Counted from the first letter of the stretch, positions 19,280 through 64,000 are shown. The stretch: 64,000 nt of DNA from an uncultured bacterium (GCA_937864235.1 CALMJI010000018.1:73955-137954); one strand, 5' to 3'. Program-made: numbers and translations. The notes: generated by a model not told the origin, from the sequence alone.

Positions 19280-19480
19280 TTGTCTCCTTTATTTTGTCTC
19301 CCTCCATATTTCGTAGGGGCGACCTTTCAGTCGCCTGTGTTTTTTCTAAAATTCCCCTATTGAGGGCTTTAAGTCCCTCCTATATTTATTTAGGAGGGGG
19401 TGGCACGGAGTGCCGGGGGTGGACTGTATTTGTATTTCTGTCCTCCCTTGGGGGAGGTGCCCGCAGGGCGGAGGAGGACA
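19280..19480. repeat. GC-rich modular intergenic repeat (modules GGCGAC-loop-GTCGCC, CCCCT-a-ttGAGGG, GGCAC-gga-GTGCC, CCTCCC-ttgg-GGGAGG)
   Basis: Same module family as the other loci. Confidence 0.8.
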
Positions 19481-19485
19481 TTCCA

Positions 19486-19854
19486 TTACAATCTATCCCT
19501 CACTATATCTTCAAGAATTATCATAACTCCATTTATAGACTTTAGAACTTCTTCATCAGTAAATCTAATTACCATAAAACCTAAATTCTCTAAATATTTT
19601 TGTCTAATAATGTCATTATCATAAATCTCTGGATGATTATGACTTTCTCCATCTACTTCTATAATTATTTTTAATTCTAGACATACAAAATCTACAATAT
19701 ATCTACCAACCGGTCTTTGTCTTCTAAAAATAACACCTAGTTTTTTACTCTTTAGACCATATTTCCATAAACAAGCTTCAGCTTTGGTCATAGAAGATCT
19801 TAATTTGTAAGCAACTGGTTTTAATCTTTTATTATAACTATTATTTTCTTTCAT
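19486..19854 (-). CDS. DUF559 endonuclease-domain protein (Vsr-like fold)
   Basis: RYIVDFVCLELKIIIEVDGESH...KYLENLGFMVIRF DUF559 signature. Confidence 0.8.
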   Translation of the reverse strand: MKENNSYNKRLKPVAYKLRSSMTKAEACLWKYGLKSKKLGVIFRRQRPVGRYIVDFVCLELKIIIEVDGESHNHPEIYDNDIIRQKYLENLGFMVIRFTDEEVLKSINGVMIILEDIVRDRL

Positions 19855-24338: not shown

Positions 24339-24611
24339 AAATTCCCCTCTCGAGAGATAGCAGGCTTTGCCTGACGGGGTGGAGTATTTCTGTACTTCAC
24401 CTTTCTGTCTCCCTTTGGAGGGAGTACCCGTAATAGACTGAAAGTCTGGGAAAGGGGTCGGGAAAACGGCAGTTTTCCCGTGGAGGAAGGCTGGGAAACC
24501 GTGAGGTTTCACAAGAGCAAATCTCATTTGCGACGGGGGAGGGTGGATAAAACACAAACTAAAACTCTATCCACCTCCGGCACTCTGTGCCACCTCCTCC
24601 AAAGGAGGACA
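24339..24611. repeat. GC-rich modular intergenic repeat (includes GCAAATctcATTTGC hairpin module)
   Basis: Shares modules with 25248-25492, 37190-37300 (inverted) and 60200-60290. Confidence 0.8.
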
Positions 24612-25186: not shown

Positions 25187-25250
25187 ATTATATTTTTGAT
25201 TATTATTTACCTAGTATATACCCAAAACTTTATTAAAGCAAAAGTTTCTG
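25187..25250 (-). promoter_or_regulatory. conserved promoter/5' leader module (TTGCTT-17-TATACT ... TATAAT-ATG) shared by three toxin genes
   Basis: About 60 nt nearly identical at 25187-25250, 25983-26045 and 28833-28895, continuing into the first codons ATGCAAAAgTTT. Confidence 0.55.
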
Positions 25251-25492
25251 TCCACACCCACCGCTATGCGGCCCACTCGCCGGCGAGGGACAGTTTTTTG
25301 GGGGGCTCGGCGGTAACTTTGTCCTCCCTTCGGAGGGAGTACCCGTAGGGTGAGGGTGGATGGGCTATTTTTGTCCTCCCTTGGGGGAGGTGGCCGTCAG
25401 GCCGGAGGAGGACAGGAGCAAATCTCATTTGCGACGACGGAGTGAGGACTTGCTCACTGCCCTTTTACGATAAAAGGCATACCCAAGATAGT
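25248..25492. repeat. GC-rich modular intergenic repeat
   Basis: Modules CTCCCT-tcgg-AGGGAG, GCAAATctcATTTGC and CCTTTTAcgaTAAAAGG-catacccaagatag. Confidence 0.8.
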
Positions 25493-25982: not shown

Positions 25983-26045
25983 ATTATATTTTTGATTCTT
26001 ATCTATCTAGTATATCCTAAATATTTTAGTAAAGCAAAAGCTTCT
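25983..26045 (-). promoter_or_regulatory. conserved promoter/5' leader module (copy 2)
   Basis: See 25187-25250. Confidence 0.55.
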
Positions 26046-26192
26046 GTCCTTCGCCCTTTTGTCCCCCTTCGGAGGGGGTGCCTGCAAGGTGGGGGTGGCT
26101 TGTATTCTGACCCTCACTGCCCTTCTGTCCCTCGCTTTTTAATCCGCCTTGGGAGGAAGCGAGGGTGGCACGGAGTGCCGGGTGTGGACTGT
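26044..26192. repeat. GC-rich modular intergenic repeat
   Basis: CCCCCT-tcgg-AGGGGG, aatccgccttgggaggaagcgaggg and GGCAC-gga-GTGCC modules. Confidence 0.8.
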
Positions 26193-26220
26193 ATTTTTCT
26201 TTCCTATCTACAAACCTAAT

Positions 26221-27291: not shown

Positions 27292-27374
27292 ATAAAATAA
27301 TTAAATCATTAATTCAATCTAATTGTATCATAAATGATACAATTAAGCAATTGCAGTGATATAATTAAATATCG

Positions 27375-27680
27375 TCATCTCCACCCTTCGTAGGGGCGAC
27401 CTCTCAGTCGCCTGTATTTTGTACTAAATTCCCCTCTCCTCCCAAGGCGGATTTCATTGAGGGGTGGACAGCTTCGCTGGACGGGGTGGAGTGTATTTTT
27501 GTCCCCCTTTGGAGGGGGTACCTGCAAGGTGGGGGTGGATTGTATTCTGCCCCTCACTGCCCTTTTGTCCCTCGTTTTTTAATCCGCCTTGGGAGGAGGC
27601 GAGGGTGGCACGGAGTGCCGGGTGTGGACTGAGCTTCCCTCCCCTTTTACGATAAAAGGCATACCCAAGATAGTAAATCT
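27375..27680. repeat. GC-rich modular intergenic repeat (largest mosaic copy)
   Basis: Contains nearly all modules seen elsewhere, including a nested insertion of the aatccgccttgggaggag module inside the CCCCTC...GAGGGG hairpin. Confidence 0.85.
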
Positions 27681-27810
27681 AATTTTGACAAAATCAAACA
27701 ATAGAGTTATTATTATTATATATTCGGCATTAGCCGCGACCCTCTTGAAATATAGAGGGGTTATAAATAGGTAGACTAAGAGATCCTGGGCTACCTATTT
27801 TATATTATAA

Positions 27811-28832: not shown

Positions 28833-28895
28833 ATTATATTTTTGATTCTTATCTATCTAGTATATCCTAAATATTTTAGTAAAGCAAAAACTCCT
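28833..28895 (-). promoter_or_regulatory. conserved promoter/5' leader module (copy 3, on the zeta-like gene)
   Basis: See 25187-25250. Confidence 0.55.
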
Positions 28896-29150
28896 GTCCT
28901 AAAATTCCCCTCTTTTGGCAATCCGCCTACCTACGGCAGGTAAACCTTGGGAGGAGAGGGGTGGACAGCTTCGCTGGACGGGGTGGAGTATTTTATACTT
29001 TTCTCTTGCCCTTCTGTCCCCCTTTGCCTGCCTGCGGTAGGCAGGGAGGGGGTGCCTGCAAGGTGGGGGTGGATGTTCTCTTTCTGTTCCCCAGTGGACT
29101 ACCCCTTCCCTCCCCTTTTACGATAAAAAGAATACCCAAGATAGCCATTG
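28893..29150. repeat. GC-rich modular intergenic repeat
   Basis: Modules shared with 27375-27680. Confidence 0.8.
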
Positions 29151-36816: not shown

Positions 36817-36917
36817 ATATTTTTAGGGTTATTGTTTTATTATAGCATGGGTTGGGGTGTGTGTGAATTATAAATGGTGAATTATGAGTTTGTAGGGGCT
36901 AAAATGCAAAAGCAAAA

Positions 36918-37390
36918 CTCAATCCACCCCGTCCAGCGTAGCTGTCCACCCCTCGAGAGGGGAATTAGCTCAGTCCTACTCCGGCCTATCGGCCACCTCC
37001 CCCGAGGGAGGACAAGAGGGCAAGTTGCAAAGTACATCCACCCTCCCCCTTCGGGGACTCCCTCCTAAGGGAGACAGAAGCTCTGAAGGCCAGAAATCCA
37101 ATATTCAAAATACACTCCACCCCGTCCAGCATAGCTGTCCACCCCTCAAGAGGGGAATTTAGCTCAGGCTGCAAAATACGGTCCTCCTCCGCCGTCGCAA
37201 ATGGGATTTGCTCCTGTGAAACCTCTCGGTTTCCCAACCTTCCTCAACGGGAAAACTTCTGTTTTCCCAACCCCTTTCCCAGACTTTCAGTCTACTTCGT
37301 GCCACCTCCCCCAAGGGAGGACAAGAGGGCAAGTTGCAAAGTATCAAATACAGGCGACTGAGAGGTCGCCCCTACGAGATGGGAGGGTAG
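36918..37390. repeat. GC-rich modular intergenic repeat (about 470 bp, two tandem composite copies)
   Basis: Module set similar to 38420-38645; contains an inverted copy of the GCAAAT..ATTTGC / gtttcccaaccttcctc module seen at 24430-24540. Confidence 0.8.
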
Positions 37391-37416
37391 AAATTTTATA
37401 ATTAAAGCTTATTATA

Positions 37417-38419: not shown

Positions 38420-38645
38420 AAAACTCAATCCACCCCGTCAGTCAAACCTACCACCCCTCGAGAGGGGAATTTAGCTCAAGTCCTCCTCCGTCACCTACGG
38501 TGACACCTCCCCCAAGGGAGGACAGAAAATAGAAGTCCAGAAACACATCCACCCTCCCCCTTCGGGGACTCCCTACAAAGGGAGACAAAAGCTCAGTCCA
38601 CACCCGTCGACTTCCTCGCTACCCTCGCCAGCGAGGGACAGAAAA
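38420..38645. repeat. GC-rich modular intergenic repeat
   Basis: Shares more than 100 nt with 36918-37140. Confidence 0.8.
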
Positions 38646-38659
38646 CATTCACAAATTAA

Positions 38660-38692
38660 AAAGGAGGTCTGTCTAACCTCCTTTGATTGTAG
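38660..38692 (-). terminator. rho-independent terminator for the 38697-38987 gene
   Basis: AGGAGGT...ACCTCCT hairpin followed by a T-run on the minus strand. Confidence 0.5.
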
Positions 38693-45989: not shown

Positions 45990-46100
45990 AATACTGTCCT
46001 ACCTTGGGGGAGGACAGAAATAAACTGCCCCTCGCTTTGTAATCCGCCTTGTGAGGAGGCGAGGGTGGACCACGTCAGTGGGTGGGTGTGGACAGTTTTG
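45990..46100. repeat. GC-rich modular intergenic repeat
   Basis: CCTACC-ttgg-GGGAGG and aatccgccttgtgaggaggcgaggg modules. Confidence 0.75.
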
Positions 46101-46179
46101 GACTATGTACTAATAATAACTTTTACATCTAAAAAGAGAGATAATATCCCTCTTTTTATCTGGACTTTAGAATATAAGA

Positions 46180-48272: not shown

Positions 48273-48369
48273 ATCTGTATTCTCTTATTGATATATTATA
48301 TTTTGTATTTTTATTATAGCATAGAAAGAAAAATTTTTGAATGGGTTGTATGGTGTTTTTAAATTTCCC

Positions 48370-48750
48370 TGTCCTCCTCCGTCACTTTACGGTGCCACCT
48401 CCCCCAAGGGAGGACAGTAATTTTGTCCCTCGCCGGCGAGGGTGGCACGGAGCGCCGGGTGTGGACTTGTCTTTGATAGGTATTTTTTATCCACCCTCCC
48501 ACTACGGGTACGCCCTCCCTGCCTACCGCAGGCAGGCAAAAGGAGACAAAAAGCAGAGTTCAGGCGACTGAAAGGTCGCCCCTACGAGGACAGAATATAC
48601 TATTTAACTCTATCCACCTCCGGCCTAAAGGCAACCTCCTCCTAAGGAGGACACGATCTCCAATGCAGGACAATCCACCCCGTCAATAAAAGATTTCCAC
48701 CCCTCAATGAAATCCGCCTTGGGCGGAGAGGGGAATTTTAATATAGCCCC
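48370..48750. repeat. GC-rich modular intergenic repeat
   Basis: Modules shared with 19280-19480 and 10872-10971 (ctgcctaccgcaggcaggc, GGCAC-gga-GCGCC). Confidence 0.8.
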
Positions 48751-55485: not shown

Positions 55486-55561
55486 AAACTTTCTGTAATT
55501 TATGTTTATATTATATCATAAAAATTAGAGATTTAGAATTGTGTTGGGTTATGAAGTTTTG

Positions 55562-55650
55562 TTCCTCGCCAATTTTTCCGTAGGGGCGACCTCTCAGTCG
55601 CCTGTGTTTTCGTAGAGGAGAGTGACTTCCCTCAACACACCCCAATTATT
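55562..55650. repeat. GC-rich repeat module (GGCGAC-ctctca-GTCGCC type)
   Basis: Same module as 27387-27410, 19313-19335, 37355-37378 and 56430-56455. Confidence 0.75.
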
Positions 55651-56338
55651 TTCGCTAATTACCCTTGACAAAATTAGGAAAATGTGGTATATACACCATA
55701 CCTTTCGCTTTGCGAAAATGCCTAAATTGGAAAGTTGGGTGATGGCAGGTATCCGCCGTCAATCCACTTGGTGGAAACACCAAGAAATCAGGCTCTTCTG
55801 GGAGCCTGACATTCATCTAGCTACCGTCAGGGTAGTAATCGATGAACTGAACCTGCTATGCCAAGCAATTGGCCTGCAGTTCAAACTGATCCCATTCGGA
55901 TCACACCAGAGTGCCATGATACAGCTCAAAGCTGTCACTCATGACAATCAAATTGACTATAATCGTTTTTTCGATATAGTCGTTGCCGAGGATTGGAGGA
56001 ATGAGAGTATCGGCGGGCGAGAGCACGGAGATATTTTCATAACTACCAAACACCTCCTTGATGACCCAGTGTCATTAGGATGTGCAAGTTACACAGATGG
56101 TTGTATTCTCTTTGCTCTCCATGGGCAAAGTCAACACAACCATACTCTCCTAAGGAGACTAGTTCGCCACGAGGCAACTCATCTTCTGGGACTTGGACTG
56201 CATTGTAATGAATTCCCTGTACAGGGATATCATTACAATGATAGGTGTAACATGCACTACCACCTTCCCTCTGGGGAAACTTGCCCCAAGTGCTTGGATT
56301 ACCTTCGAGCATTTTGGACACATCTAGGTAGATTATGA
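55622..56338 (+). CDS. putative zinc metallopeptidase (metzincin/archaemetzincin-like HExxHxxGxxxH plus C-terminal Cys cluster); compositionally GC-richer than neighbours
   Basis: VRHEATHLLGLGLHC ... CNM ... CPKC; the true start may be an internal Met (MWYIHH or MPKLESW) because the 5' end overlaps the repeat. Confidence 0.4.
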   Translation: MTSLNTPQLFSLITLDKIRKMWYIHHTFRFAKMPKLESWVMAGIRRQSTWWKHQEIRLFWEPDIHLATVRVVIDELNLLCQAIGLQFKLIPFGSHQSAMIQLKAVTHDNQIDYNRFFDIVVAEDWRNESIGGREHGDIFITTKHLLDDPVSLGCASYTDGCILFALHGQSQHNHTLLRRLVRHEATHLLGLGLHCNEFPVQGYHYNDRCNMHYHLPSGETCPKCLDYLRAFWTHLGRL

Positions 56339-56393: not shown

Positions 56394-56429
56394 ATAAAAT
56401 ATATTTTTTGTTTCAAAACACAAACACTA

Positions 56430-56562
56430 CGGGCGACTGAGAGGTCGCCCCTACGAAGCACAAAATACATCCACCCCCGCCTTTCAGGCTTCCCCCTCCG
56501 AAGGGGGACAAAAAATCAACCACTCCACTACAAAATAAATGTCGGCGAGGTCGCCGACTCTA
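56430..56562. repeat. GC-rich modular intergenic repeat
   Basis: gggcgactgagaggtcgccc and GTCGGCGAggTCGCCGAC hairpins. Confidence 0.75.
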
Positions 56563-56570
56563 CACAAGAT

Positions 56571-57860
56571 TTACTCCCTCTCCCCTAAATCCTCAAGTAA
56601 TAGAATTCCCTGCTCGCCTGTTTGCATATTTTTGACAAGTACTTCTCCGGCTTTTGCTTCATCAGAGCCAAAAAATATAGCTTCGGTATAATTTTTGCGG
56701 TTGGCGTATTGTAGAGCTTTTTTGAAACTGACAATTTCTGGATAGAGGTCAAAGGCTACTCCGTATTCATCTCTGAGCTCTATAATTGTCTGCATTGTCT
56801 GGGGTAAATTCTCTTCACTCAATATAAAAACTACCCTCTTTGGCTCTGAATAATTCATAGCCTTGAACCAATCCTCTTCTCGTAAAATTCCAAATAGTCT
56901 ACTAACTCCAATCGAGGCTCCAAATCCTGTAATCGGAGTATCTATATAATTCCCAACCAGATTATCATATCTACCTCCAGAGCAAACACTACCATAGGCT
57001 TCTAACCCTTCAAGATTGCTCTCGAATACTGTGCCAGTATAATAATCCTGTCCGCGGACTATAGATAAGTCTATTTTGTATTTTCTAATTTCAAATAATT
57101 CTAGGTATTGCACTAGTTCCTGTAATTCTTTTAAGCCGTCTAGATACAGCGGGTGTTGGCAATTTTGATCTTGTAATAGATTAAAGACTTCCTGAACCTC
57201 ACCCTTAGCACTGACAAAATTATATAAAGTATCTATAAATTTTTCCTCTATTTGCAAGTCTCGTAGAGCTTGTAGCCAATCTGTTTTGGATAATTTCTCA
57301 TATTTATCTATAATTCTCAGTACCCCAGCCTGATCTTGAATTTTATACTCTTCTAACAACCCCGACAAAATCTTACGATTACTAATTCTAAAAGTAATCT
57401 CTGGCAAGTCTAAAATAGTAAAAATATTCTGGATAATTGACAACATCTCAGCCTCAGCCAATCTACTATTATTGCCAAGTATATCTATATCTGCCTGATA
57501 TAGCTCGCGGTATCTACCTTTTTGAGGTTTCTCAGCCCGCCAAGACTTGCCTATCTGATAAATTTTAGCTGGCATAGCTATATCTCGATGATGCTCGGCT
57601 ATGTATCTTGCCATCGGTACAGTGAGGTCAAATCTAAGGCTAAGATCCCGACTACCTTTTTGGAAGCGATAGATCTCCTTATCCATCTCGCCACCGGCTT
57701 TGGCTAATAATACTTCTGAATATTGAATAGAAGCCGCCTCCAGCGGAGTAAATCCAGCGAATTCATACTCGTCTTGAATTGTTCTCAAGATATGGTTGAA
57801 TTTCACCTGTTCATCTAGGCTATATTCGATAAAACCAGAAGGTAGCTGGTGTTTTGGCAT
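56571..57860 (-). CDS. hisS: histidine--tRNA ligase
   Basis: Class II motif 2 (WRAEKPQKGRYRELYQADIDILG) and HisRS motif 3 (GGRYD); 429 aa with a C-terminal anticodon-binding domain. Confidence 0.85.
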   Translation of the reverse strand: MPKHQLPSGFIEYSLDEQVKFNHILRTIQDEYEFAGFTPLEAASIQYSEVLLAKAGGEMDKEIYRFQKGSRDLSLRFDLTVPMARYIAEHHRDIAMPAKIYQIGKSWRAEKPQKGRYRELYQADIDILGNNSRLAEAEMLSIIQNIFTILDLPEITFRISNRKILSGLLEEYKIQDQAGVLRIIDKYEKLSKTDWLQALRDLQIEEKFIDTLYNFVSAKGEVQEVFNLLQDQNCQHPLYLDGLKELQELVQYLELFEIRKYKIDLSIVRGQDYYTGTVFESNLEGLEAYGSVCSGGRYDNLVGNYIDTPITGFGASIGVSRLFGILREEDWFKAMNYSEPKRVVFILSEENLPQTMQTIIELRDEYGVAFDLYPEIVSFKKALQYANRKNYTEAIFFGSDEAKAGEVLVKNMQTGEQGILLLEDLGERE

Positions 57861-58937: not shown

Positions 58938-59060
58938 CTGTCCTCCTTCGGAGGAGGTGGCACGGAGTGCCGGAGGTGGATAGAGTTTGAGTTTGTATTT
59001 TATCCACCCTCCCTCCTAAGGGGGACAAAAAGCAGAATAAAGGCGACTGAAATATCCCAC
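58938..59060. repeat. GC-rich modular intergenic repeat
   Basis: CCTCCT-tcgg-AGGAGG, GGCAC-gga-GTGCC and aggcgactgaaa modules. Confidence 0.75.
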
Positions 59061-59738: not shown

Positions 59739-60141
59739 TCCGCGATAGCTCAGCGGTAGAGCAGTCGGCTGTGAATGCCTTCTTGAGTCGTCGTAAAATA
59801 ATTATATTTTTATGTCTGACAAAAGAAAATATTCTGATCGTGCTGAATATCTTTTTTAGAAATTCACTCCGATCTAGTCGCAGCCTCTTCTGGTAACAGA
59901 AGTTGAAACACGAGGTGAATTGCTGGAAGCCTAAGGTAGTAATACTAAGGCAATCAGCAGCCAAGTCTAGCAAAACTAGAAAGGTTCAGAGACTATCCCA
60001 AAAGGGAGTACATTGTAGCAATACAGTGGAAGCGCCTCGCTCCATCAAAACGATGGATGATGATATAGTCCACGCCTATTAGAAATATTAGGACAAGGTG
60101 TAACCGATTGGTCGTAGGTTCGAATCCTACTCGCGGAGCCA
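59739..60141 (+). tRNA. tRNA-Asn (anticodon GUU) interrupted by an intron in the anticodon loop (exons 59739-59772 and 60101-60141, CCA encoded)
   Basis: Exons fold as a cloverleaf: acceptor TCCGCGA/TCGCGGA (U1-A72, discriminator G73 as in E. coli tRNA-Asn), D-arm GCTC-AGCGGTA-GAGC, anticodon stem GTCGG/CCGAT, spliced loop CTGT|TAA giving anticodon GTT, variable loop TGGTC, T-arm GTAGG-TTCGAAT-CCTAC. Confidence 0.7.
59773..60100 (+). ncRNA. group I (IC3-like) self-splicing intron inside tRNA-Asn
   Basis: 5' exon ends in U and the intron ends in G; IGS GCAGCC (59879-59884) complements exon GGCUGU; P2 hairpin TCTTCTGgtaaCAGAAG; core blocks GTGAATTGCTGGAAGCCTAAGG and GGCAATCAGCAGCCAAGTC resemble Azoarcus/Tetrahymena P3-P4 and J6/7; CAGAGACTA (P7 5') paired with TAGTC (60066-60070); P8 TCCCaaaaGGGA; P9 hairpin before omega-G. 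Confidence 0.6.
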
Positions 60142-60153
60142 AAATATAAAAGG

Positions 60154-60174
60154 GGAGATTTTGTCTCCTTTTTT
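60154..60174 (+). terminator. rho-independent terminator after tRNA-Asn
   Basis: GGAGAttttGTCTCC hairpin followed by T6; near-identical copy at 63438-63461. Confidence 0.65.
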
Positions 60175-60194
60175 ATATTTCTTGTCTTTTGAGA

Positions 60195-60319
60195 GAGTAG
60201 GATGAGAACCTGGGGAAGGGGTCGGGAAACGAGAGTTTCCAGTGGCGGAGGTATTGGAACCGAGGGGTTCCAAGGAGTGAATCCCATTCACGACTGGTTT
60301 GCAATCCTACTCGCGGAGC
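60195..60319. repeat. GC-rich repeat module followed by a partial direct copy of the tRNA-Asn 3' end (60295-60319)
   Basis: GGTTTGCAATCCTACTCGCGGAGCA versus tRNA GGTTCGAATCCTACTCGCGGAGCCA. Confidence 0.7.
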
Positions 60320-60330
60320 AAAATCCCTTT

Positions 60331-60355
60331 AAACAGCTTATCTTAGCTGTTTTTT
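60331..60355 (+). terminator. rho-independent terminator
   Basis: AACAGCTtatcttAGCTGTT hairpin followed by T6. Confidence 0.7.
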
Positions 60356-60391
60356 GGTCTGTAATACTTATCTATATAAATATGACAATGA

Positions 60392-60453
60392 TTGACATAT
60401 TTAATTTTATATGCTAATGTTTTCTAGTCCTTGTTCTTTCACATCACAGGAGG
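60392..60453 (+). promoter_or_regulatory. sigma70-like promoter plus RBS of the radical SAM gene
   Basis: TTGACA (60392-60397), 17-nt spacer, TAATGT (60415-60420); AGGAGG at 60448-60453, 6 nt before the ATG. Confidence 0.55.
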
Positions 60454-60459
60454 CTTTCC

Positions 60460-61629
60460 ATGAAACTACTTCTTCGTAAAGAGTCCTTTGGAGGAACCCT
60501 CTTCGTACCCTCTAGTGGTAAAAGATTCTATCTTAACACAAAAGAGTACTCAGAGTTAACCTCTACTCACAAATTGCCACCTGATATTGAAAAATCTCTT
60601 GGATTGCAAAATCTGACTAATATCGACCTGATAGTTGTAGAACCTGATTTCTTGCCTATAGAGAACTTTAGCAGCCCAGACAAAGTATTTTTTGAACTTA
60701 CTCGCAGGTGTAATTTAACCTGTATTCAGTGTTTAAATGACTCAGGTTCAGAACTAAGTGATGAACTAAATCATTCCCAAAAGGTAAAGATTATTTCTGA
60801 CTTAGCACAGTCTGGAATACAAGAAGTTCGATTTACGGGTGGAGAACCTTTGGCTGACAAGTCTTGGTTTGAAATCGCCAAAGAGGCAAAAAAATACGGC
60901 TTAAGAGTATCTTTCGGATCAAATGGCACCCTGATAACTGAGCCTGTTGTAAAGCTGATGCAATCAATTGGAGTTAATTCAGTTATTACGAGCCTAGATG
61001 GTCTCAAAGACACACATGAAGCAATTAGAGGATATGCATCGTGGGAAAAAACTATTCTTGCTATTAGTCTTCTCAAAGAAGCAAACATAGAGGTAAGAGT
61101 TAACTTTGTACTAATGAGAGAAAATATTCATGAGGTTTATGACCTCTGTGAATTTATTCTGTCAAAAGGGGTTCCTGTTTTTCTCAGACGATTCATACCC
61201 AGCGGTAGAGGTTCAGGAAGTTTTCATCAAATACTCACTCAAAAAGAATATGATCTTTTGAACCAGTCTCTTAGCCCACTAATTCATCAGTTTGGAAGCC
61301 TAATTCAAGGCCACTATATCAACGAGTCTCCTGTACTATCTAGAATCCCTCTCCCATTTAAAAGAAAAAGCTGTAGTGCAGTGCACAGAGGAATGGTAGT
61401 ACTCCCAAATGGGAAGCTATCAAGCTGTGGTTTTCTTGCAGACCTAGGAGAAGGAGAGATTGGAGACCTTCAAAAGGAGTCCTTCCTTTCCATTTGGAGG
61501 CATCTAAATGAAACTCAATACGTTCATACATTTGAAAGTAGGGTAGGAAAGTTTAACCAATCAAATCCAGGACCAGCTAATGGATGCCTAGCTCTTGCCC
61601 ATGCATACACCAATAAAGGAGAAGGTTAA
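60460..61629 (+). CDS. radical SAM enzyme with N-terminal PqqD-like (RRE-like) extension and C-terminal Cys-containing auxiliary (twitch/SPASM-like) domain
   Basis: CxxxCxxC (RRCNLTCIQC) at about residue 83; N-terminal LLLRKESFGGTLFVPSSGKRFYLNTKEYSELT resembles PqqD/RRE strands; C-terminal Cys (KSCSAV, SSCGF, NGCLA); GGE-like FTGGEPL block. Confidence 0.75.
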   Translation: MKLLLRKESFGGTLFVPSSGKRFYLNTKEYSELTSTHKLPPDIEKSLGLQNLTNIDLIVVEPDFLPIENFSSPDKVFFELTRRCNLTCIQCLNDSGSELSDELNHSQKVKIISDLAQSGIQEVRFTGGEPLADKSWFEIAKEAKKYGLRVSFGSNGTLITEPVVKLMQSIGVNSVITSLDGLKDTHEAIRGYASWEKTILAISLLKEANIEVRVNFVLMRENIHEVYDLCEFILSKGVPVFLRRFIPSGRGSGSFHQILTQKEYDLLNQSLSPLIHQFGSLIQGHYINESPVLSRIPLPFKRKSCSAVHRGMVVLPNGKLSSCGFLADLGEGEIGDLQKESFLSIWRHLNETQYVHTFESRVGKFNQSNPGPANGCLALAHAYTNKGEG

Positions 61630-62156
61630 TGATCGTCTTAACAGGACTACATGGCTCAGGAAAAAGCCACCTCTGTTCTATTTTAAAATCAGAAGGGTGT
61701 TACATTGTTAATAAACGAGAAATTTTATCAAGGATGTTCCTAGATCAAGGTAAAGGATATTCATTCGATGATTGGATGAAGCATCAGTATACTACCCCTG
61801 GGAATGATGCAGCAAATATGATGTTACGGATATTGGATTACGTACCAAAAGATCAGTTGATTCAAAATATGCTTCTGGTCTTTGATGCAATTCACAACCT
61901 AGCAGAATGGGAAGTGATTTATACAAAGTATCCAAATAGCATCTTAGCCCTTGTAGCATCACCGTTAAATGTGAGAGCTAGTAGGAACTCTATTGAGGAT
62001 GAGATCCTCGATAAAAAAAGAGTACAGTACTGGCATGAGAGTTCTGTAGAAGGGAAATCAAGCTGCTTAATGTCACACGTAGAAGCTTGCTTTAATGGAA
62101 ACATATCAGACACAGTTCAAACACAAATAGTGCGAGAGTTTATATCAACCTTATAG
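61629..62156 (+). CDS. P-loop NTPase/kinase-like protein
   Basis: Walker A GLHGSGKS at the N-terminus; start overlaps the rSAM stop (ATGA), indicating translational coupling. Confidence 0.5.
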   Translation: MIVLTGLHGSGKSHLCSILKSEGCYIVNKREILSRMFLDQGKGYSFDDWMKHQYTTPGNDAANMMLRILDYVPKDQLIQNMLLVFDAIHNLAEWEVIYTKYPNSILALVASPLNVRASRNSIEDEILDKKRVQYWHESSVEGKSSCLMSHVEACFNGNISDTVQTQIVREFISTL

Positions 62157-62230
62157 TCTAGTCGCTCTATCTAATCAAGGAAGATGTAACAACATCTTCC
62201 TTTTCCATATCTATTATATATCTTTACTAT

Positions 62231-62932
62231 ATGAAAAAAGTTTTAGCAGTATTATCTCTAAATAATGACTATTCTGAAGCTATTAGCAAGCTAAATGCTG
62301 TGTCAGAAGAAATATTGTTTGAAATAACTTATATCGAGAACTTATCTCTATCTAAACTTAATAATATGCATTATTATGATGCTATTTATATTGTAAATAA
62401 TAATGATCTGACAAGACAATTCTTACCAATCCTAAACCATAAGACAAAATTTTTAATTAATAAGACTTATTGGTTTGAAAACTTTAGTAAGGTTACAGCT
62501 CAACAAAATTTAAAAATCAATAATATTTTAGCGCCTTCCATAATCTACCCTCTGCCAACAGACTATATAGAGGAATATTTTATTAAATCTATATCTCATA
62601 CAGTAGGAGTAATTCATCCAAAGGACGCTCAAAAGAATTTTAATAAATGTAATAAACTTCAATATTACCTAGAAGAACAAGTTATAACTGGGAAAGAAGA
62701 GAAGATATATGTTGTAAATAATGAATGCTCTCTCAACAATCTCCCATATAATGACTTTAGTAAAGATATCGAGAGAATATCTACGATATTAGGACTCAAT
62801 GTTTTTTCAGCAGATGTGTTTATTGATAATGATAGTATAAATATAGTTGATGTAAACCCTGCATCTTGTTTTTTTAAGGATGATTATGCAAGACATAAGT
62901 TTATAGATTACCTCAAGATTATGTTATACTAA
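62231..62932 (+). CDS. ATP-grasp-like protein (putative ligase)
   Basis: C-terminal block EKIYVVNNECS...LGLNVFSADVFIDNDSINIVDVNPAS resembles the ATP-grasp Mg/ATP-binding C-domain (xxEVNxxPG-like); low-complexity AT-rich. Confidence 0.35.
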   Translation: MKKVLAVLSLNNDYSEAISKLNAVSEEILFEITYIENLSLSKLNNMHYYDAIYIVNNNDLTRQFLPILNHKTKFLINKTYWFENFSKVTAQQNLKINNILAPSIIYPLPTDYIEEYFIKSISHTVGVIHPKDAQKNFNKCNKLQYYLEEQVITGKEEKIYVVNNECSLNNLPYNDFSKDIERISTILGLNVFSADVFIDNDSINIVDVNPASCFFKDDYARHKFIDYLKIMLY

Positions 62933-62965
62933 TGTTATGTATTTACAAATTTATAACCTACCCCC

Positions 62966-63370
62966 ATGCAAAAACTTAAATCTGGAGCAATTATACTCTC
63001 AAATGACTCTACTAAAATCCTTCTTGTCTATAGAGGTAAAGAAGCTGATTGGTCTTTTCCTAAAGGACATATTGAGGAAAATGAGATTCCAGTAGACGCT
63101 ATGAAAAGAGAAGTAAAGGAAGAAACTGGTTTAGAGGTGTCTACAGTAATCACAGAATTGACTCCTATAGAGTATATAGATAGCAAAAATATCCTATGCC
63201 GTACGCATTATTTTCTATGTACAGCTCATGAGGGAGAACTTATTACTGAAAAACCTGATGATAAATTAGAGTGGATAGAAATAAATTTAGTACACGATAC
63301 TCTATCTTATGACAATCTCAAAGAGTATTGGAAAGAGAATGTATTGCCTAATCTACCAAGAAAAGCTTAA
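62966..63370 (+). CDS. Nudix hydrolase
   Basis: Nudix box GHIEENEIPVDAMKREVKEETGL (Gx5Ex7REUxEExGU). Confidence 0.8.
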   Translation: MQKLKSGAIILSNDSTKILLVYRGKEADWSFPKGHIEENEIPVDAMKREVKEETGLEVSTVITELTPIEYIDSKNILCRTHYFLCTAHEGELITEKPDDKLEWIEINLVHDTLSYDNLKEYWKENVLPNLPRKA

Positions 63371-63397
63371 TTTTAGTTCTAAAGATCCCCACTCAAT

Positions 63398-63465
63398 AGT
63401 TCGAAACATATCCACGAGAGGGAGCAAAAATATAAAAGAGGAGATTTCTGTCTCCTTTTTTATAT
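63398..63465 (+). repeat. decayed direct repeat of the tRNA-Asn 3' end plus its terminator (putative attR-like island boundary); also a bidirectional terminator
   Basis: AGTTCGAAACATATCCACGAGAGGGAGCAAAAATATAAAAGAGGAGATTTCTGTCTCCTTTTTTATATTA versus 60118-60180 GGTTCGAATCCTACTCGCGGAGCCAAAATATAAAAGGGGAGATTTTGTCTCCTTTTTTATATTT. Confidence 0.5.
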
Positions 63466-63467
63466 TA

Positions 63468-64000
63468 TCATATATACTTCTGAGCCTCTCCCCATTCCTC
63501 CTCAGATAAATTTCCTTTAATCACAAGAGATTTAATATGAGATGATAGAAATTGTTTTGCTAGAGCTATAACTTCTTCATAAGATATTGCTCTTATATCC
63601 TTATAGAAATCTTCTAAGGTAATATGTATTCCATCATTATAAGGTAACTGTAACCCATAAAAAGATTGTATTTCATATATGCTACCATCTTGAGTTTTTG
63701 CATCACTGATATAAATAGTTTTATATCTTTCTATATCTTGTGGTGTTATCAGAGACGCCAGATTGTTAATAGAGTTATAGATAATTTGCAATGATTCTAT
63801 TAACTTTTCTTTTTCTATTTTATATTGAAATTGTATATCTATACTATTAGGATGTACAGTTGAATACGAATCAATCCAATATACTAAATTATTCTTAATA
63901 CGTAATTCTTGTAATAATACTGAGGTCCAAAAATTAGCTAAAGCTGTTCGTAAAATTGATAACGTAGTGCTTGTTCTAAGATTTATCGTATTGGGGATGG
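63468..64000 (-). CDS. partial gene (runs off the window end): C-terminal domain reminiscent of M16-family (insulinase-like) peptidase
   Basis: The 63468-63791 frame has ITLEDFYKDIRAISYEEVIALAKQFL, typical of M16 C-terminal domains; coding continues upstream in another frame or beyond the window. Confidence 0.25.
   Translation of the reverse strand, partial: IPNTINLRTSTTLSILRTALANFWTSVLLQELRIKNNLVYWIDSYSTVHPNSIDIQFQYKIEKEKLIESLQIIYNSINNLASLITPQDIERYKTIYISDAKTQDGSIYEIQSFYGLQLPYNDGIHITLEDFYKDIRAISYEEVIALAKQFLSSHIKSLVIKGNLSEEEWGEAQKYI

Follow-up and report, generated by a model that had tools for sequence, protein, structure and literature searches.

The window analysed here is a stretch of 64,000 nucleotides from an uncultured bacterium (GCA_937864235.1 CALMJI010000018.1:73955-137954), a tiny-genome Paceibacterota/CPR organism. 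It contains a tRNA-Asn(GUU) gene followed by an array of short repeated segments, a 3.1-kb block of four intact enzyme genes and a convergent M16 peptidase gene (Pfam Peptidase_M16, L001 13009-14226) (Table 1). The tRNA gene is interrupted by a 328-nt group I intron that holds what a deletion has left of an HNH homing-endonuclease ORF; in the relative L017 the same intron carries the full HNH ORF. Introns of this kind have already been published (PMC13011429). The unspliced gene was missed by ARAGORN, while the spliced sequence is called as tRNA-Asn and is identical to the intron-less genes of relatives. The array begins at 60142, directly after exon 2 ends at 60141.

Table 1 Features of the tRNA-Asn locus, in coordinates of the whole window.
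Feature	Position	Strand	Basis or remark
tRNA-Asn(GUU) exon 1	59739..59772	+	Spliced exons give canonical 75-nt tRNA-Asn
Group I intron, anticodon position 35/36	59773..60100	+	Rfam RF00028, 86.5 bits
tRNA-Asn exon 2, CCA encoded	60101..60141	+	Final 30 nt serve as left half of attachment site
Core GCGGAGC, copy 1, tRNA/terminator A junction	60133..60139	+	Nine-genome junction table
Terminator A, 18-bp stem and T run	60142..60180	+	Sequence and repeat comparison
GC-rich structured element	60190..60319	+	Conserved in L012, L021, L020, L018, L003
Core GCGGAGC, copy 2, element/terminator B junction	60313..60319	+	Left boundary of cassette unit
Terminator B	60328..60357	+	After core in L021 and L018 too
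Promoter-like TTGACA-17-TGnTAATGT and RBS AGGAGG	60392..60453	+	Read from sequence
Radical SAM protein, RRE-like N-terminus, C-terminal SPASM/twitch (predicted)	60460..61629	+	Pfam, AF2, Foldseek
P-loop (Walker A) nucleotide-kinase-like protein	61629..62156	+	Walker A GLHGSGKS; weak Pfam
ATP-grasp enzyme, small family without Pfam model (predicted)	62231..62932	+	Predicted fold
Nudix hydrolase, Nudix box intact	62966..63370	+	Pfam NUDIX 5.3e-18
Conserved att-arm motif (CCACTCAATAGTTCGAAACATATCCAC...), ~37 nt, tRNA-like	63385..63420	+	Recurs in loci of relatives
Core copy 3, degenerate AGGGAGC	63419..63425	+	Right boundary of cassette unit
Terminator A', bidirectional, between Nudix and convergent M16	63426..63466	+	43/46 vs 60135-60179
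M16 peptidase gene, 3' part, leaves window	63468..64000	-	Conserved right flank

The first gene of the block codes for a radical SAM (rSAM) protein with Pfam matches to Radical_SAM (1.8e-23) and SPASM (1.1e-4); all NCBIfam matches are far under the family cut-offs. Its AF2 model (pLDDT 93.5) is matched by Foldseek to SkfB (E = 7e-21) and SuiB (6.5e-18) over ~374-396 columns; MoaA, BlsE and DesII are further structural neighbours, and viperins are neighbours of its core. The invariant cysteines are C84/C88/C91, which form a CX3CX2C core, and C305/C323/C376. The N-terminal domain, predicted as a three-strand sheet with helices, is nearly invariant in the family (R6, E8, F10, G11, T13, G20, R22, Y24, E29) and, judging from the modelled structure, is probably an RRE-like peptide-recognition domain. 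The rSAM stop and the P-loop start overlap by base 61629, as had been described before, and in homologous loci the P-loop gene always comes after the rSAM gene. The P-loop protein matches AAA_18/AAA_33 below the Pfam cut-off and a UPF0200/AdkA-like PDB entry (E = 1.3e-4). For the third ORF no Pfam or NCBIfam match was obtained. Its AF2 model (pLDDT 89.3) resembles ArgX/LysX/RimK/Ddl/PsnB (Foldseek E = 3e-11 to 1e-9, TM up to 0.75, probability 1.0), inositol-phosphate kinases are also among its structural matches, and the invariant residues K119, E148, D195, D207 and N209 correspond to the conserved Lys / Glu / Asp...Asp-x-Asn nucleotide-Mg set. The predicted fold confirms the assignment of this ORF to the ATP-grasp superfamily, within which its own family is small (70 representatives among 1.84 billion proteins). 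In some relatives the Nudix hydrolase is fused to the ATP-grasp protein. The first-pass annotation, made from the sequence alone, had named the cargo as an rSAM(RRE)/P-loop/ATP-grasp/Nudix set, and this identification is borne out by Pfam for the rSAM and Nudix proteins, by the Walker A motif and by structure for the RRE-like domain and the ATP-grasp protein. It had also credited the block with its own strong promoter and RBS. The RBS (60448-60453) and the -35 box (60392-60397), separated by a 17-nt spacer from TAATGT with a preceding TG, are indeed present, but the -10 box is weak and a consensus scan gave no call. The four-enzyme module recurs in other Patescibacteria and in one Parachlamydiales and one Clostridia MAG.

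A GC-rich structured element precedes the block and is 89-96% identical in five relatives, the L003 copy at 89%. Its 5' arm (60195-60211) is antisense to the tRNA T-arm/acceptor, its inner domain (~60210-60296) comprises three hairpins, one of them with four compensatory pairs, and its 3' end (60297-60319) copies the tRNA-Asn 3' end. Covariance-model matches to the element score 158-184 bits. A search of Rfam at E<=1 gave no credible match; the hit to the vertebrate lncRNA ST7-OT4_3 (E = 0.097, 20.8 bits vs a gathering score of 50) was rejected as chance, and the repeat relatives of the element gave nothing in Rfam at E<=0.1. The genome is rich in GC-rich mosaic repeats, of which the inner domain is one. 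The partial tRNA-end copy noticed earlier near 60295-60319 is real, 60303-60319 being an exact 17-nt copy of 60123-60139. Since it is the 3' end of an element that is also found without the cassette, it does not belong to the islet, and the extent of the islet, previously given as 60142-63465, is corrected to 60320-63425.

The outer repeat pair, 60135-60179 and 63421-63466, is identical at 43 of 46 positions with one indel, in line with the near-identity claimed for its terminator part, and no comparable match arose in shuffled sequence. It consists of the last 7 nt of tRNA-Asn and the terminator and includes GGAGC(C/A)A; the distal copy shares no more of the tRNA than its final 7-9 nt. The sequence in front of the distal copy had been taken for a decayed tRNA copy of about 65 percent identity. 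Local alignment of 63393-63420 with the tRNA leaves GTTCGAA alone in common (p ~0.07, not significant alone), but a conserved motif is present: its 20-mer TCAATAGTTCGRAACATATC is found again in L003, L016 and L018, each time immediately 5' of the GGAGC core, and the motif closes a serine-recombinase island in L016 as well as the cargo in L018, L003 and L010. The segment 63385-63420 is thus a conserved element-side att arm and not the result of random decay. About 20 junctions in nine genomes have the core GCGGAGC in common, and the halves on both sides of it are interchangeable, namely tRNA, GC-rich element or motif on the left and terminators A/B/B'/C/D or an island on the right. Terminator A is likewise found behind the core in L020, in L012 and, twice, in L010, and the similarity of the window to L021 and L018 stops at ~60357. 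Whenever terminator A, B or C occurs as a full copy in the 1.36 Mb of loci, it lies directly 3' of a GCGGAGC core, and terminator A was not found away from the core. This strict linkage, together with the empty or otherwise occupied sites of relatives and the integrase carried by sister elements (see below), argues against the view that nothing here is mobile and that an ordinary operon is bracketed by chance by two members of a common terminator or repeat family. The abundance of mosaic repeats in this genome, the element's inner domain among them, would suit such a view, as would the base composition of the cassette (36-40% GC in the rSAM and P-loop genes, ~27% in the ATP-grasp gene, 34% in the genome), in which neither an atypical value nor a sharp GC boundary was found. 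We regard it as largely refuted and very improbable.

The comparison with relatives that had been called for earlier revealed empty sites with both flanks kept. L012 and L011 retain HisRS-Bcp-YgjP-tRNA-Asn and the M16 gene and lack the cassette: in L012 the tRNA is followed by terminator C, the element and a terminator A that abuts M16, in L011 by ~120 nt and M16. Altogether, eight relatives (HisRS identity 68-95%) have no cassette at the tRNA-Asn locus. The same tRNA-Asn is occupied by other cargo in L016/L017, L015, L018, L020 and L021; in L018 the cargo is 1.45 kb of other genes with the motif at its end, and L021 shows the same element/terminator B junction as the window with a different gene behind it. 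In L010, two direct motif/core/terminator A sites bracket an NrtR-PnuC-NadR-like cassette. Among the relatives compared, the genes of the block were not found without the flanking repeats. The fairly distant L003 carries an rSAM cassette of 60% identity, and because this lies on the element side of a motif/core/terminator C-element arrangement, the junction reads as attR. These empty sites, and the unrelated cargo in the closest relatives, support the earlier proposal that site-specific recombination placed foreign cargo at the tRNA-Asn 3' end and that no integrase remains. The cassette could instead be ancestral, with relatives having lost it by deletion between core/terminator repeats, which would make the empty sites secondary. 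The 46-nt direct repeats could mediate such a deletion, and the fairly distant L003 also has its cassette beside the motif. However, the eight cassette-free relatives stand against ancestry, the L003 cassette differs in gene order and orientation and has a transposase beside it, and many independent losses and gains would be needed because unrelated cargo, bounded by the same att-arm motif, occupies the site in the closest relatives (HisRS 92-95%). We therefore consider an ancestral cassette improbable. An islet it is, as proposed, yet its four genes are intact and their arrangement is fixed in 13 contigs. To call the segment 60320-63425 a cassette unit without recombinase, set in an array, therefore fits better than to call it a decaying remnant.

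No recombinase homologue was detected by tblastn in the window with 10 kb on either side, in L001 or in L002, in agreement with the first-pass annotation, which had advised a search of neighbouring contigs for a tyrosine integrase. The recombinases found at the site are of another type. In L016/L017 a 6.8-kb island at the same tRNA-Asn carries a large serine recombinase (Resolvase, Recombinase and Zn_ribbon_recom domains; phrog_95 'integrase', 1.8e-76) that abuts the tRNA 3' end and is convergent with the tRNA. The island also encodes a C5 methylase and ends with motif/GCGGAGC/terminator B'. In the reconstructed L016 attP a dyad symmetry was seen by eye only. A second, divergent serine recombinase lies at tRNA-Asn in L015. 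In L097, tRNA-Glu is followed at once by a convergent serine recombinase, and an rSAM-P-loop-Nudix-methyltransferase-ATP-grasp set is found 4 kb away; a distal repeat was sought for the L097 island and not found, so this cassette is only a candidate member of it. Alternatively, a tyrosine recombinase with its gene elsewhere might have exchanged the unit in the window, or homologous recombination might have done so across the conserved flanks formed by tRNA, element, terminators and M16, with the serine recombinases being mere neighbours. A common core of 7 nt is what one would typically expect of the overlap region of a tyrosine recombinase, the 46-nt flanking identity is long enough for homology-driven exchange, and the left junction of the unit (element/terminator B) is without the island-type arm seen beside the tRNA in L016. 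Because this junction matches L021 and has no such arm, the window does not present a clean attL/attR pair; the degenerate state of its third core likewise speaks against the reading as a site-specific insertion. On the other hand, the sole recombinases seen at tRNA-Asn (three genomes) and tRNA-Glu (a fourth) are large serine enzymes, convergent with the tRNA and abutting its 3' end, no tyrosine recombinase was seen in any compared locus, and the L016 island and the window cassette end in the same motif. Exchange by a tyrosine enzyme or by homology is therefore unlikely in our view. That a serine recombinase, and not some other enzyme or exchange by homology, moved the unit in the window is our inference, as is the order in which things happened at the tRNA-Asn site.

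We propose that the tRNA-Asn 3' end serves this Paceibacterota lineage as a hot spot of site-specific recombination where small cassette units pile up, the four-gene block being one of them, and we consider this reading as a whole probable. Each junction would consist of a left half-site (the T-arm/acceptor of the tRNA, the element's tRNA-like 3' end or the tRNA-like 37-nt motif), the 7-nt core GCGGAGC and a right half beginning with an A-rich stretch and an intrinsic terminator. The window would then read tRNA/terminator A-element/terminator B-promoter-rSAM-P-loop-ATP-grasp-Nudix-motif/terminator A'-M16, in which the four genes, terminator B and the motif would be a single horizontally gained unit, on which a phage-type large serine recombinase of the kind carried by sister elements at the same tRNA would act in trans to move it.

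The cargo may be a conserved tailoring module, and a peptide or protein substrate is possible, although we suggest it only tentatively. The RRE-radical SAM enzyme would recognise and modify the substrate, the RimK/LysX-like ATP-grasp enzyme would form an ATP-dependent amide or ester bond, and the P-loop kinase and Nudix hydrolase would add or remove (pyro)phosphate or nucleotidyl groups. Near nine cassettes no conserved precursor-peptide ORF (15-110 aa) was found, and no cassette-linked protease or exporter was detected; the M16 peptidase is not cassette-linked because it also adjoins tRNA-Asn in the cassette-free L011 and L012. In L008, L095 and L096 the module has genes for UDP-glucose/GDP-mannose dehydrogenase and NAD-epimerase/dehydratase next to it, and these neighbours in several distant loci point to a nucleotide-sugar substrate instead of a peptide. 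The module would then act on a nucleotide or nucleotide sugar in surface-glycan or nucleoside-metabolite tailoring or in a viperin-like antiviral pathway. A Zeta-toxin-type kinase in L096, the nucleotide-kinase-like P-loop protein, PADLOC matches to pVip (1.9e-17) and Nudix PDC-S07 (1.9e-14), MoaA, BlsE and DesII among the rSAM neighbours and inositol-phosphate kinases among the ATP-grasp matches are consistent with this. Nevertheless, RRE-bearing RiPP maturases give the best structural matches over the full length, the N-terminal rSAM domain is nearly invariant across the family, the pVip matches are confined to the rSAM core and the sugar genes are missing from the window and most CPR loci; a nucleotide-type substrate is possible too, if not likely.

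Like the maturases SkfB, SuiB, CteB and PqqE, the rSAM protein combines an RRE-like domain, a CX3CX2C core and a C-terminal auxiliary-cluster domain according to its model, and the predicted fold of the ATP-grasp protein is closest to peptide/carrier-protein ligases such as RimK, LysX and PsnB. In contrast to RiPP clusters, no precursor peptide gene was found near the nine cassettes, and the rSAM protein has as obligate partners a P-loop kinase-like protein and a Nudix hydrolase, neither of which is, to our knowledge, known from RiPP clusters. The module resembles pVip in that a nucleotide-kinase-like gene follows at once upon the radical SAM gene (PADLOC pVip ~1e-17). An identification of the rSAM protein as a viperin was rejected, since the matches reach residues 76-234 only, the RRE-like and auxiliary-cluster domains lie outside them and RiPP maturases match better.

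With tRNA-linked islands and islets the unit shares its place immediately 3' of a tRNA, flanking direct repeats in which the tRNA 3' end is contained, and accessory cargo that is absent or replaced in related genomes. It differs from them in that it has no integrase, several units are stacked, the recombinases of the sister elements are large serine and not tyrosine enzymes, and the repeat comprises no more than the last 7-9 tRNA nt plus the downstream terminator. Integron cassette arrays likewise line up small units in order beside a single attachment site; each unit ends in a structured repeat, and order and content vary between relatives. Unlike integrons, the locus lacks both an IntI tyrosine recombinase and attC, promoter and terminator belong to the units themselves, and the chemistry is probably of the serine type. 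SCCmec, pseudo-SCC and Enterococcus cassette chromosome arrays at rlmH (orfX) are moved by Ccr large serine recombinases, and the pseudo-SCC elements there have no recombinase of their own. While the target here is a tRNA in a CPR bacterium, the units span 0.2-7 kb and every unit starts with an intrinsic terminator, the likeness to these arrays extends to several traits: large-serine-recombinase elements at the 3' end of a conserved gene with variable cargo, a recombinase of this class at the same site in L016/L017/L015 (assigned at Pfam and PHROG family level) but none in the window, a short common core, hybrid junctions sharing element-side arms, and tandem composites with recombinase-less units between short repeated integration-site sequences.

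The cassette of radical SAM (rSAM), P-loop, ATP-grasp and Nudix genes beside tRNA-Asn is very probably cargo that was acquired horizontally and sits in a recombination hot spot. The occurrence of islets at tRNA genes is a classical phenomenon, and an integration hot spot linked to a tRNA, as here, is a known kind of mechanism. The interpretation of the segment as an islet, put forward in the first-pass annotation, is supported with corrections to its extent and to the nature of its distal end, and serine recombinases are the probable agents of movement. The window has 34% GC and its host belongs to Candidatus Paceibacterota (CPR); contigs encoding an M16 peptidase 58-63% identical to that of the window carry Paceibacterota or Paceibacteria titles. 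The same locus was found, identical, on 13 public metagenome contigs.

The tRNA-Asn gene named in the first-pass annotation is real, but a group I intron of 328 nt (Rfam RF00028, 86.5 bits) interrupts it at anticodon position 35/36. ARAGORN missed the split gene and called the joined exons a canonical tRNA-Asn(GUU). Of the homing-endonuclease ORF in this intron only the truncated start (MSDKRKYSDRAEYL...) is left; in the related locus L017 this intron contains a complete HNH ORF, and it is missing from seven other relatives. Patescibacterial introns of this class, HNH genes included, were already reported in PMC13011429. A hydrophobic ORF of 171 amino acids without family match lies between YgjP and tRNA-Asn. 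Relatives do not have it at that position, so that the left flank of tRNA-Asn is variable too; L011 and L022 have a homologue on the far side of HisRS.

Coordinates of features in the window
Feature	Position	Remark
Hydrophobic ORF, 171 aa	59136-59651 (+)	between YgjP and tRNA-Asn
tRNA-Asn(GUU), exon 1	59739-59772	
Group I intron	59773-60100	
tRNA-Asn(GUU), exon 2	60101-60141	
Flanking repeats	60135-60179 / 63421-63466	43/46 identical, one indel
Exact 17-mer of the tRNA end	60123-60139 / 60303-60319	extendable to ~26 nt
Antisense copy of tRNA T-arm/acceptor	60195-60211	15/17
Structured element	60190-60319	3' end 60297-60319 copies the tRNA end
ORF, 71 aa	60202-60417	gene call in public contigs, not taken as gene
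Cassette unit, core to core	60320-63425	
Cassette-specific DNA	60358-63389	
ATP-grasp ORF	62231-62932	
tRNA-like motif	63385-63420	
Degenerate core AGGGAGC	63419-63425	
Copies of inner element domain	24446-24536 (+); 37192-37282 (-)	44-46 bits, E ~1e-9
GC islands	19381-19511, 24351-24611, 25231-25481, 26021-26211, 27371-27681, 28891-29131, 36891-37391, 38421-38671, 45991-46111, 48361-48691, 55561-55811, 56411-56621, 58941-59031	intergenic, >52% GC
Heliorhodopsin gene, 276 aa	50181-51011 (+)	PF18761

Related loci were fetched via the flanking genes, HisRS upstream and the M16 peptidase downstream, and all window features were mapped onto them. The comparison with related genomes that had been proposed as a check yielded two empty sites, L011 and L012, which keep both flanks without the cassette.

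Arrangements at tRNA-Asn in related loci, given in window orientation
Locus	HisRS identity	Arrangement
L011	68%	tRNA-Asn, ~120 nt, M16
L012	76%	tRNA-Asn, terminator C-element, terminator A-M16
L021	82%	tRNA, terminator C-element, terminator B, then different gene
L020	84%	tRNA, terminator A-element, terminator B', then reversed gene
L018	92%	tRNA, terminator C-element, terminator B'-1.45 kb other genes-motif, terminator B
L016 / L017	95% / 92%	tRNA, 6.8-kb island-motif, terminator B'
L015	95%	tRNA, terminator, then different serine recombinase

Similarity of the window to L021 and L018 stops just past terminator B at ~60357, and similarity to the motif of L016 and L003 begins at ~63385. These limits, together with the resident element, define the cassette unit and its specific DNA. 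Thus, the islet itself holds, whereas its earlier range of 60142-63465 does not, since it takes in the resident element. The flanking repeats and the second partial copy of the tRNA end were found as described. The stretch 63393-63420 to the left of the distal repeat, taken alone, has no significant similarity to the tRNA (p ~0.07). The far end of the L016 island reads ...TTCCAATCAATAGTTCGGAACATATCCACAAG GCGGAGC AAAGTC-terminator B', with the same motif as precedes GGAGC in the window. Because the same 37-nt motif ends both units, what had been called a decayed tRNA copy is a conserved, tRNA-like element-side att arm. The motif alignment holds seven copies from five genomes, and one copy in L010 is intermediate between the motif and a true tRNA end.

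The core GCGGAGC is present at every junction, in degenerate form at the distal end of the window cassette. Left halves are the tRNA, the 3' end of the element or the motif; right halves are terminators A, B, B', C and D or an island arm. Terminator copies were located with blastn-short in 1.36 Mb of fetched DNA, where the core stands immediately 5' of each full copy of terminator A (six independent copies), B (three) and C (five) and of three of the four B' copies. The terminators therefore belong to the recombination module and not to a free-standing generic family, by which the first-pass annotation had allowed that the similarity of the two ends might be explained.

The L016 island (L016:1-7045; L017 likewise) starts with a large serine recombinase of 491 amino acids, which is convergent with tRNA-Asn and abuts it. 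The enzyme has Resolvase, Recombinase and Zn_ribbon_recom domains and matches the phrog_95 "integrase" family with E=1.8e-76. A C5 cytosine DNA methylase and three ORFs without family match complete the island, which may be a restriction-modification or defence island. Further loci also speak for a cassette array at these junctions. In L010, two direct sites of motif, core and terminator A stand 2.7 kb apart and bracket an NrtR-PnuC-NadR-like NAD-salvage cassette (L010:2700-5650), which points to metabolic salvage operons being carried as units within the same array. Further motif copies lie past the M16 block in L012 (L012:2376-2450) and in the source genome ~4.2 kb beyond the window end (L001:17748-17790), so the array may extend further; the M16 block, with M16, small ORFs and a ricin-B-lectin protein, may be an older array unit. 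L003 carries a 60%-identical rSAM cassette and a DDE transposase on the element side of a motif, core, terminator C-element junction, which reads as a putative attR from insertion between tRNA-Asn and terminator C. In L097, from another patescibacterial genome, the gene directly after tRNA-Glu is that of a convergent serine recombinase, which shares 26% identity with the L016 enzyme, and the same rSAM-P-loop-Nudix-methyltransferase-ATP-grasp set is found 4 kb away; a search for a distal repeat of tRNA-Glu at this island found none. The left junction of the window cassette (element, terminator B) is of the "native" type, as in L021, and not an island-type attL. The unit is thus without a clean attL/attR pair, which reflects either loss or replacement of the part nearest the recombinase or a shuffling of units between equivalent sites.

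The element that separates tRNA-Asn from the cassette is GC-rich, ~135 nt long and 89-96% identical in L012, L021, L020, L018 and L003, whether a cassette follows or not. As L012 has it with a terminator but without a downstream gene, it does not serve as the cassette's leader. One of its hairpins shows four compensatory base-pair changes in L003, and its closing helix has two uncompensated mismatches in L020. Searches against Rfam at gathering and permissive thresholds gave no credible match, the only one being a chance match to the ST7-OT4_3 lncRNA (E=0.097), and an exact-pattern scan of viral contigs found no copy. A tRNA, a tmRNA-like RNA and a riboswitch leader were rejected as identities; the 5' acceptor partner is missing. 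The 71-aa ORF called in public contigs overlaps the structured element. The inner three-hairpin domain has two more copies in the window, detected with a covariance model and lacking the tRNA-like ends, in which hairpin 3 carries compensatory changes (GTGAAT/ATTCAC to GCAAAT/ATTTGC). Intergenic GC islands scattered through the 34%-GC genome share modules of 25-135 nt at 75-97% identity in both orientations and form a mosaic, hairpin-rich dispersed repeat family; these repeats have no match in Rfam.

All four genes of the cassette are intact, with the ATP-grasp assignment now resting on a structural model and the RRE on structural matches. The rSAM protein (389 aa) has a CX3CX2C motif (C84/C88/C91), a Radical_SAM domain, a weak SPASM match, invariant C305, C323 and C376 and a nearly invariant N-terminus, which in the AlphaFold model (pLDDT 93.5) forms a three-stranded sheet with helices. 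Its best structural matches in the PDB are the RRE-bearing RiPP maturases SkfB (E=7e-21, TM 0.69, 374 columns) and SuiB, followed by PqqE, CteB, MoaA, BlsE and anSME; its NCBIfam matches all fall far under the family cut-offs, and PADLOC pVip-like matches are confined to the rSAM core. The P-loop protein contains a Walker A motif and weakly resembles AdkA-like/UPF0200 kinases. The ATP-grasp ORF had no Pfam, NCBIfam or PDB-sequence match, and a word-indexed protein search returned the same species alone; it was identified by aligning co-located homologues and by structure prediction. The confident model (pLDDT 89.3) has an ATP-grasp fold with ArgX/LysX/RimK/Ddl/PsnB as its nearest structural neighbours (E=3e-11), the catalytic residues to be expected of such an enzyme do not vary, and the family is small, with 70 representatives in 1.84 billion proteins. 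The Nudix protein has an intact Nudix box, and its fusion to ATP-grasp in some relatives (L008:8072-9197; P0130, P0122 and other proteins of 326-411 aa) supports a direct functional link. The rSAM-P-loop-Nudix core with ATP-grasp nearby recurs in unrelated contexts in Patescibacteria, a Parachlamydiales MAG and a Clostridia MAG. Elsewhere in the window, a heliorhodopsin gene (precomputed Pfam match on an identical public contig) adjoins a gene for an RRM_1 RNA-binding protein.

Peptide or protein tailoring is a tentative role for the cassette. Across nine cassette loci no conserved precursor peptide was found, the sole matches being antisense shadows of coding genes, and in some distant loci the module is joined by genes for UDP-sugar dehydrogenase and epimerase. 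In view of both, we regard tailoring as possible but doubtful; action on a nucleotide or nucleotide-sugar, to which the sugar genes point, is only slightly less likely. The M16 peptidase was rejected as RiPP leader peptidase because it adjoins tRNA-Asn in cassette-free relatives too. A literature search for the combination of SPASM, Nudix and ATP-grasp found none, and a broader search nothing relevant.

A joint reading of these parts, improbable as a whole, is that serine recombinases would drive a cassette platform resembling an integron at tRNA-Asn in these Paceibacterota. Terminator-led right halves would double as reusable attachment half-sites, so that units would accrete and shuffle beside the tRNA. 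The structured element would then be a portable second attachment site or an accessory RNA or DNA, and the rSAM(RRE)-P-loop-ATP-grasp-Nudix module that it spreads would give these ultra-small bacteria a peptide-nucleotide or phospho-peptide of a kind not described before.

The locus provides a sequence-level example of accessory-gene swapping in CPR/Patescibacteria despite their minimal genomes, with a tRNA-Asn attachment site that has a 7-nt core and half-sites that can be recognised, sister elements that carry serine integrases, and cassettes without recombinase. The cargo at such sites ranges from an NAD-salvage operon and a possible restriction-modification system to the four-enzyme module, and the latter, with its RRE-radical SAM, P-loop, Nudix and ATP-grasp proteins, is a candidate through which to discover a pathway. 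The att sites, together with the L016-type integrase, could serve as genetic tools for a phylum without any. The closest likeness of the tRNA-Asn locus is found in the serine-recombinase cassette arrays of SCC and pseudo-SCC; it lies in an under-studied phylum and carries a conserved, uncharacterised cargo module.
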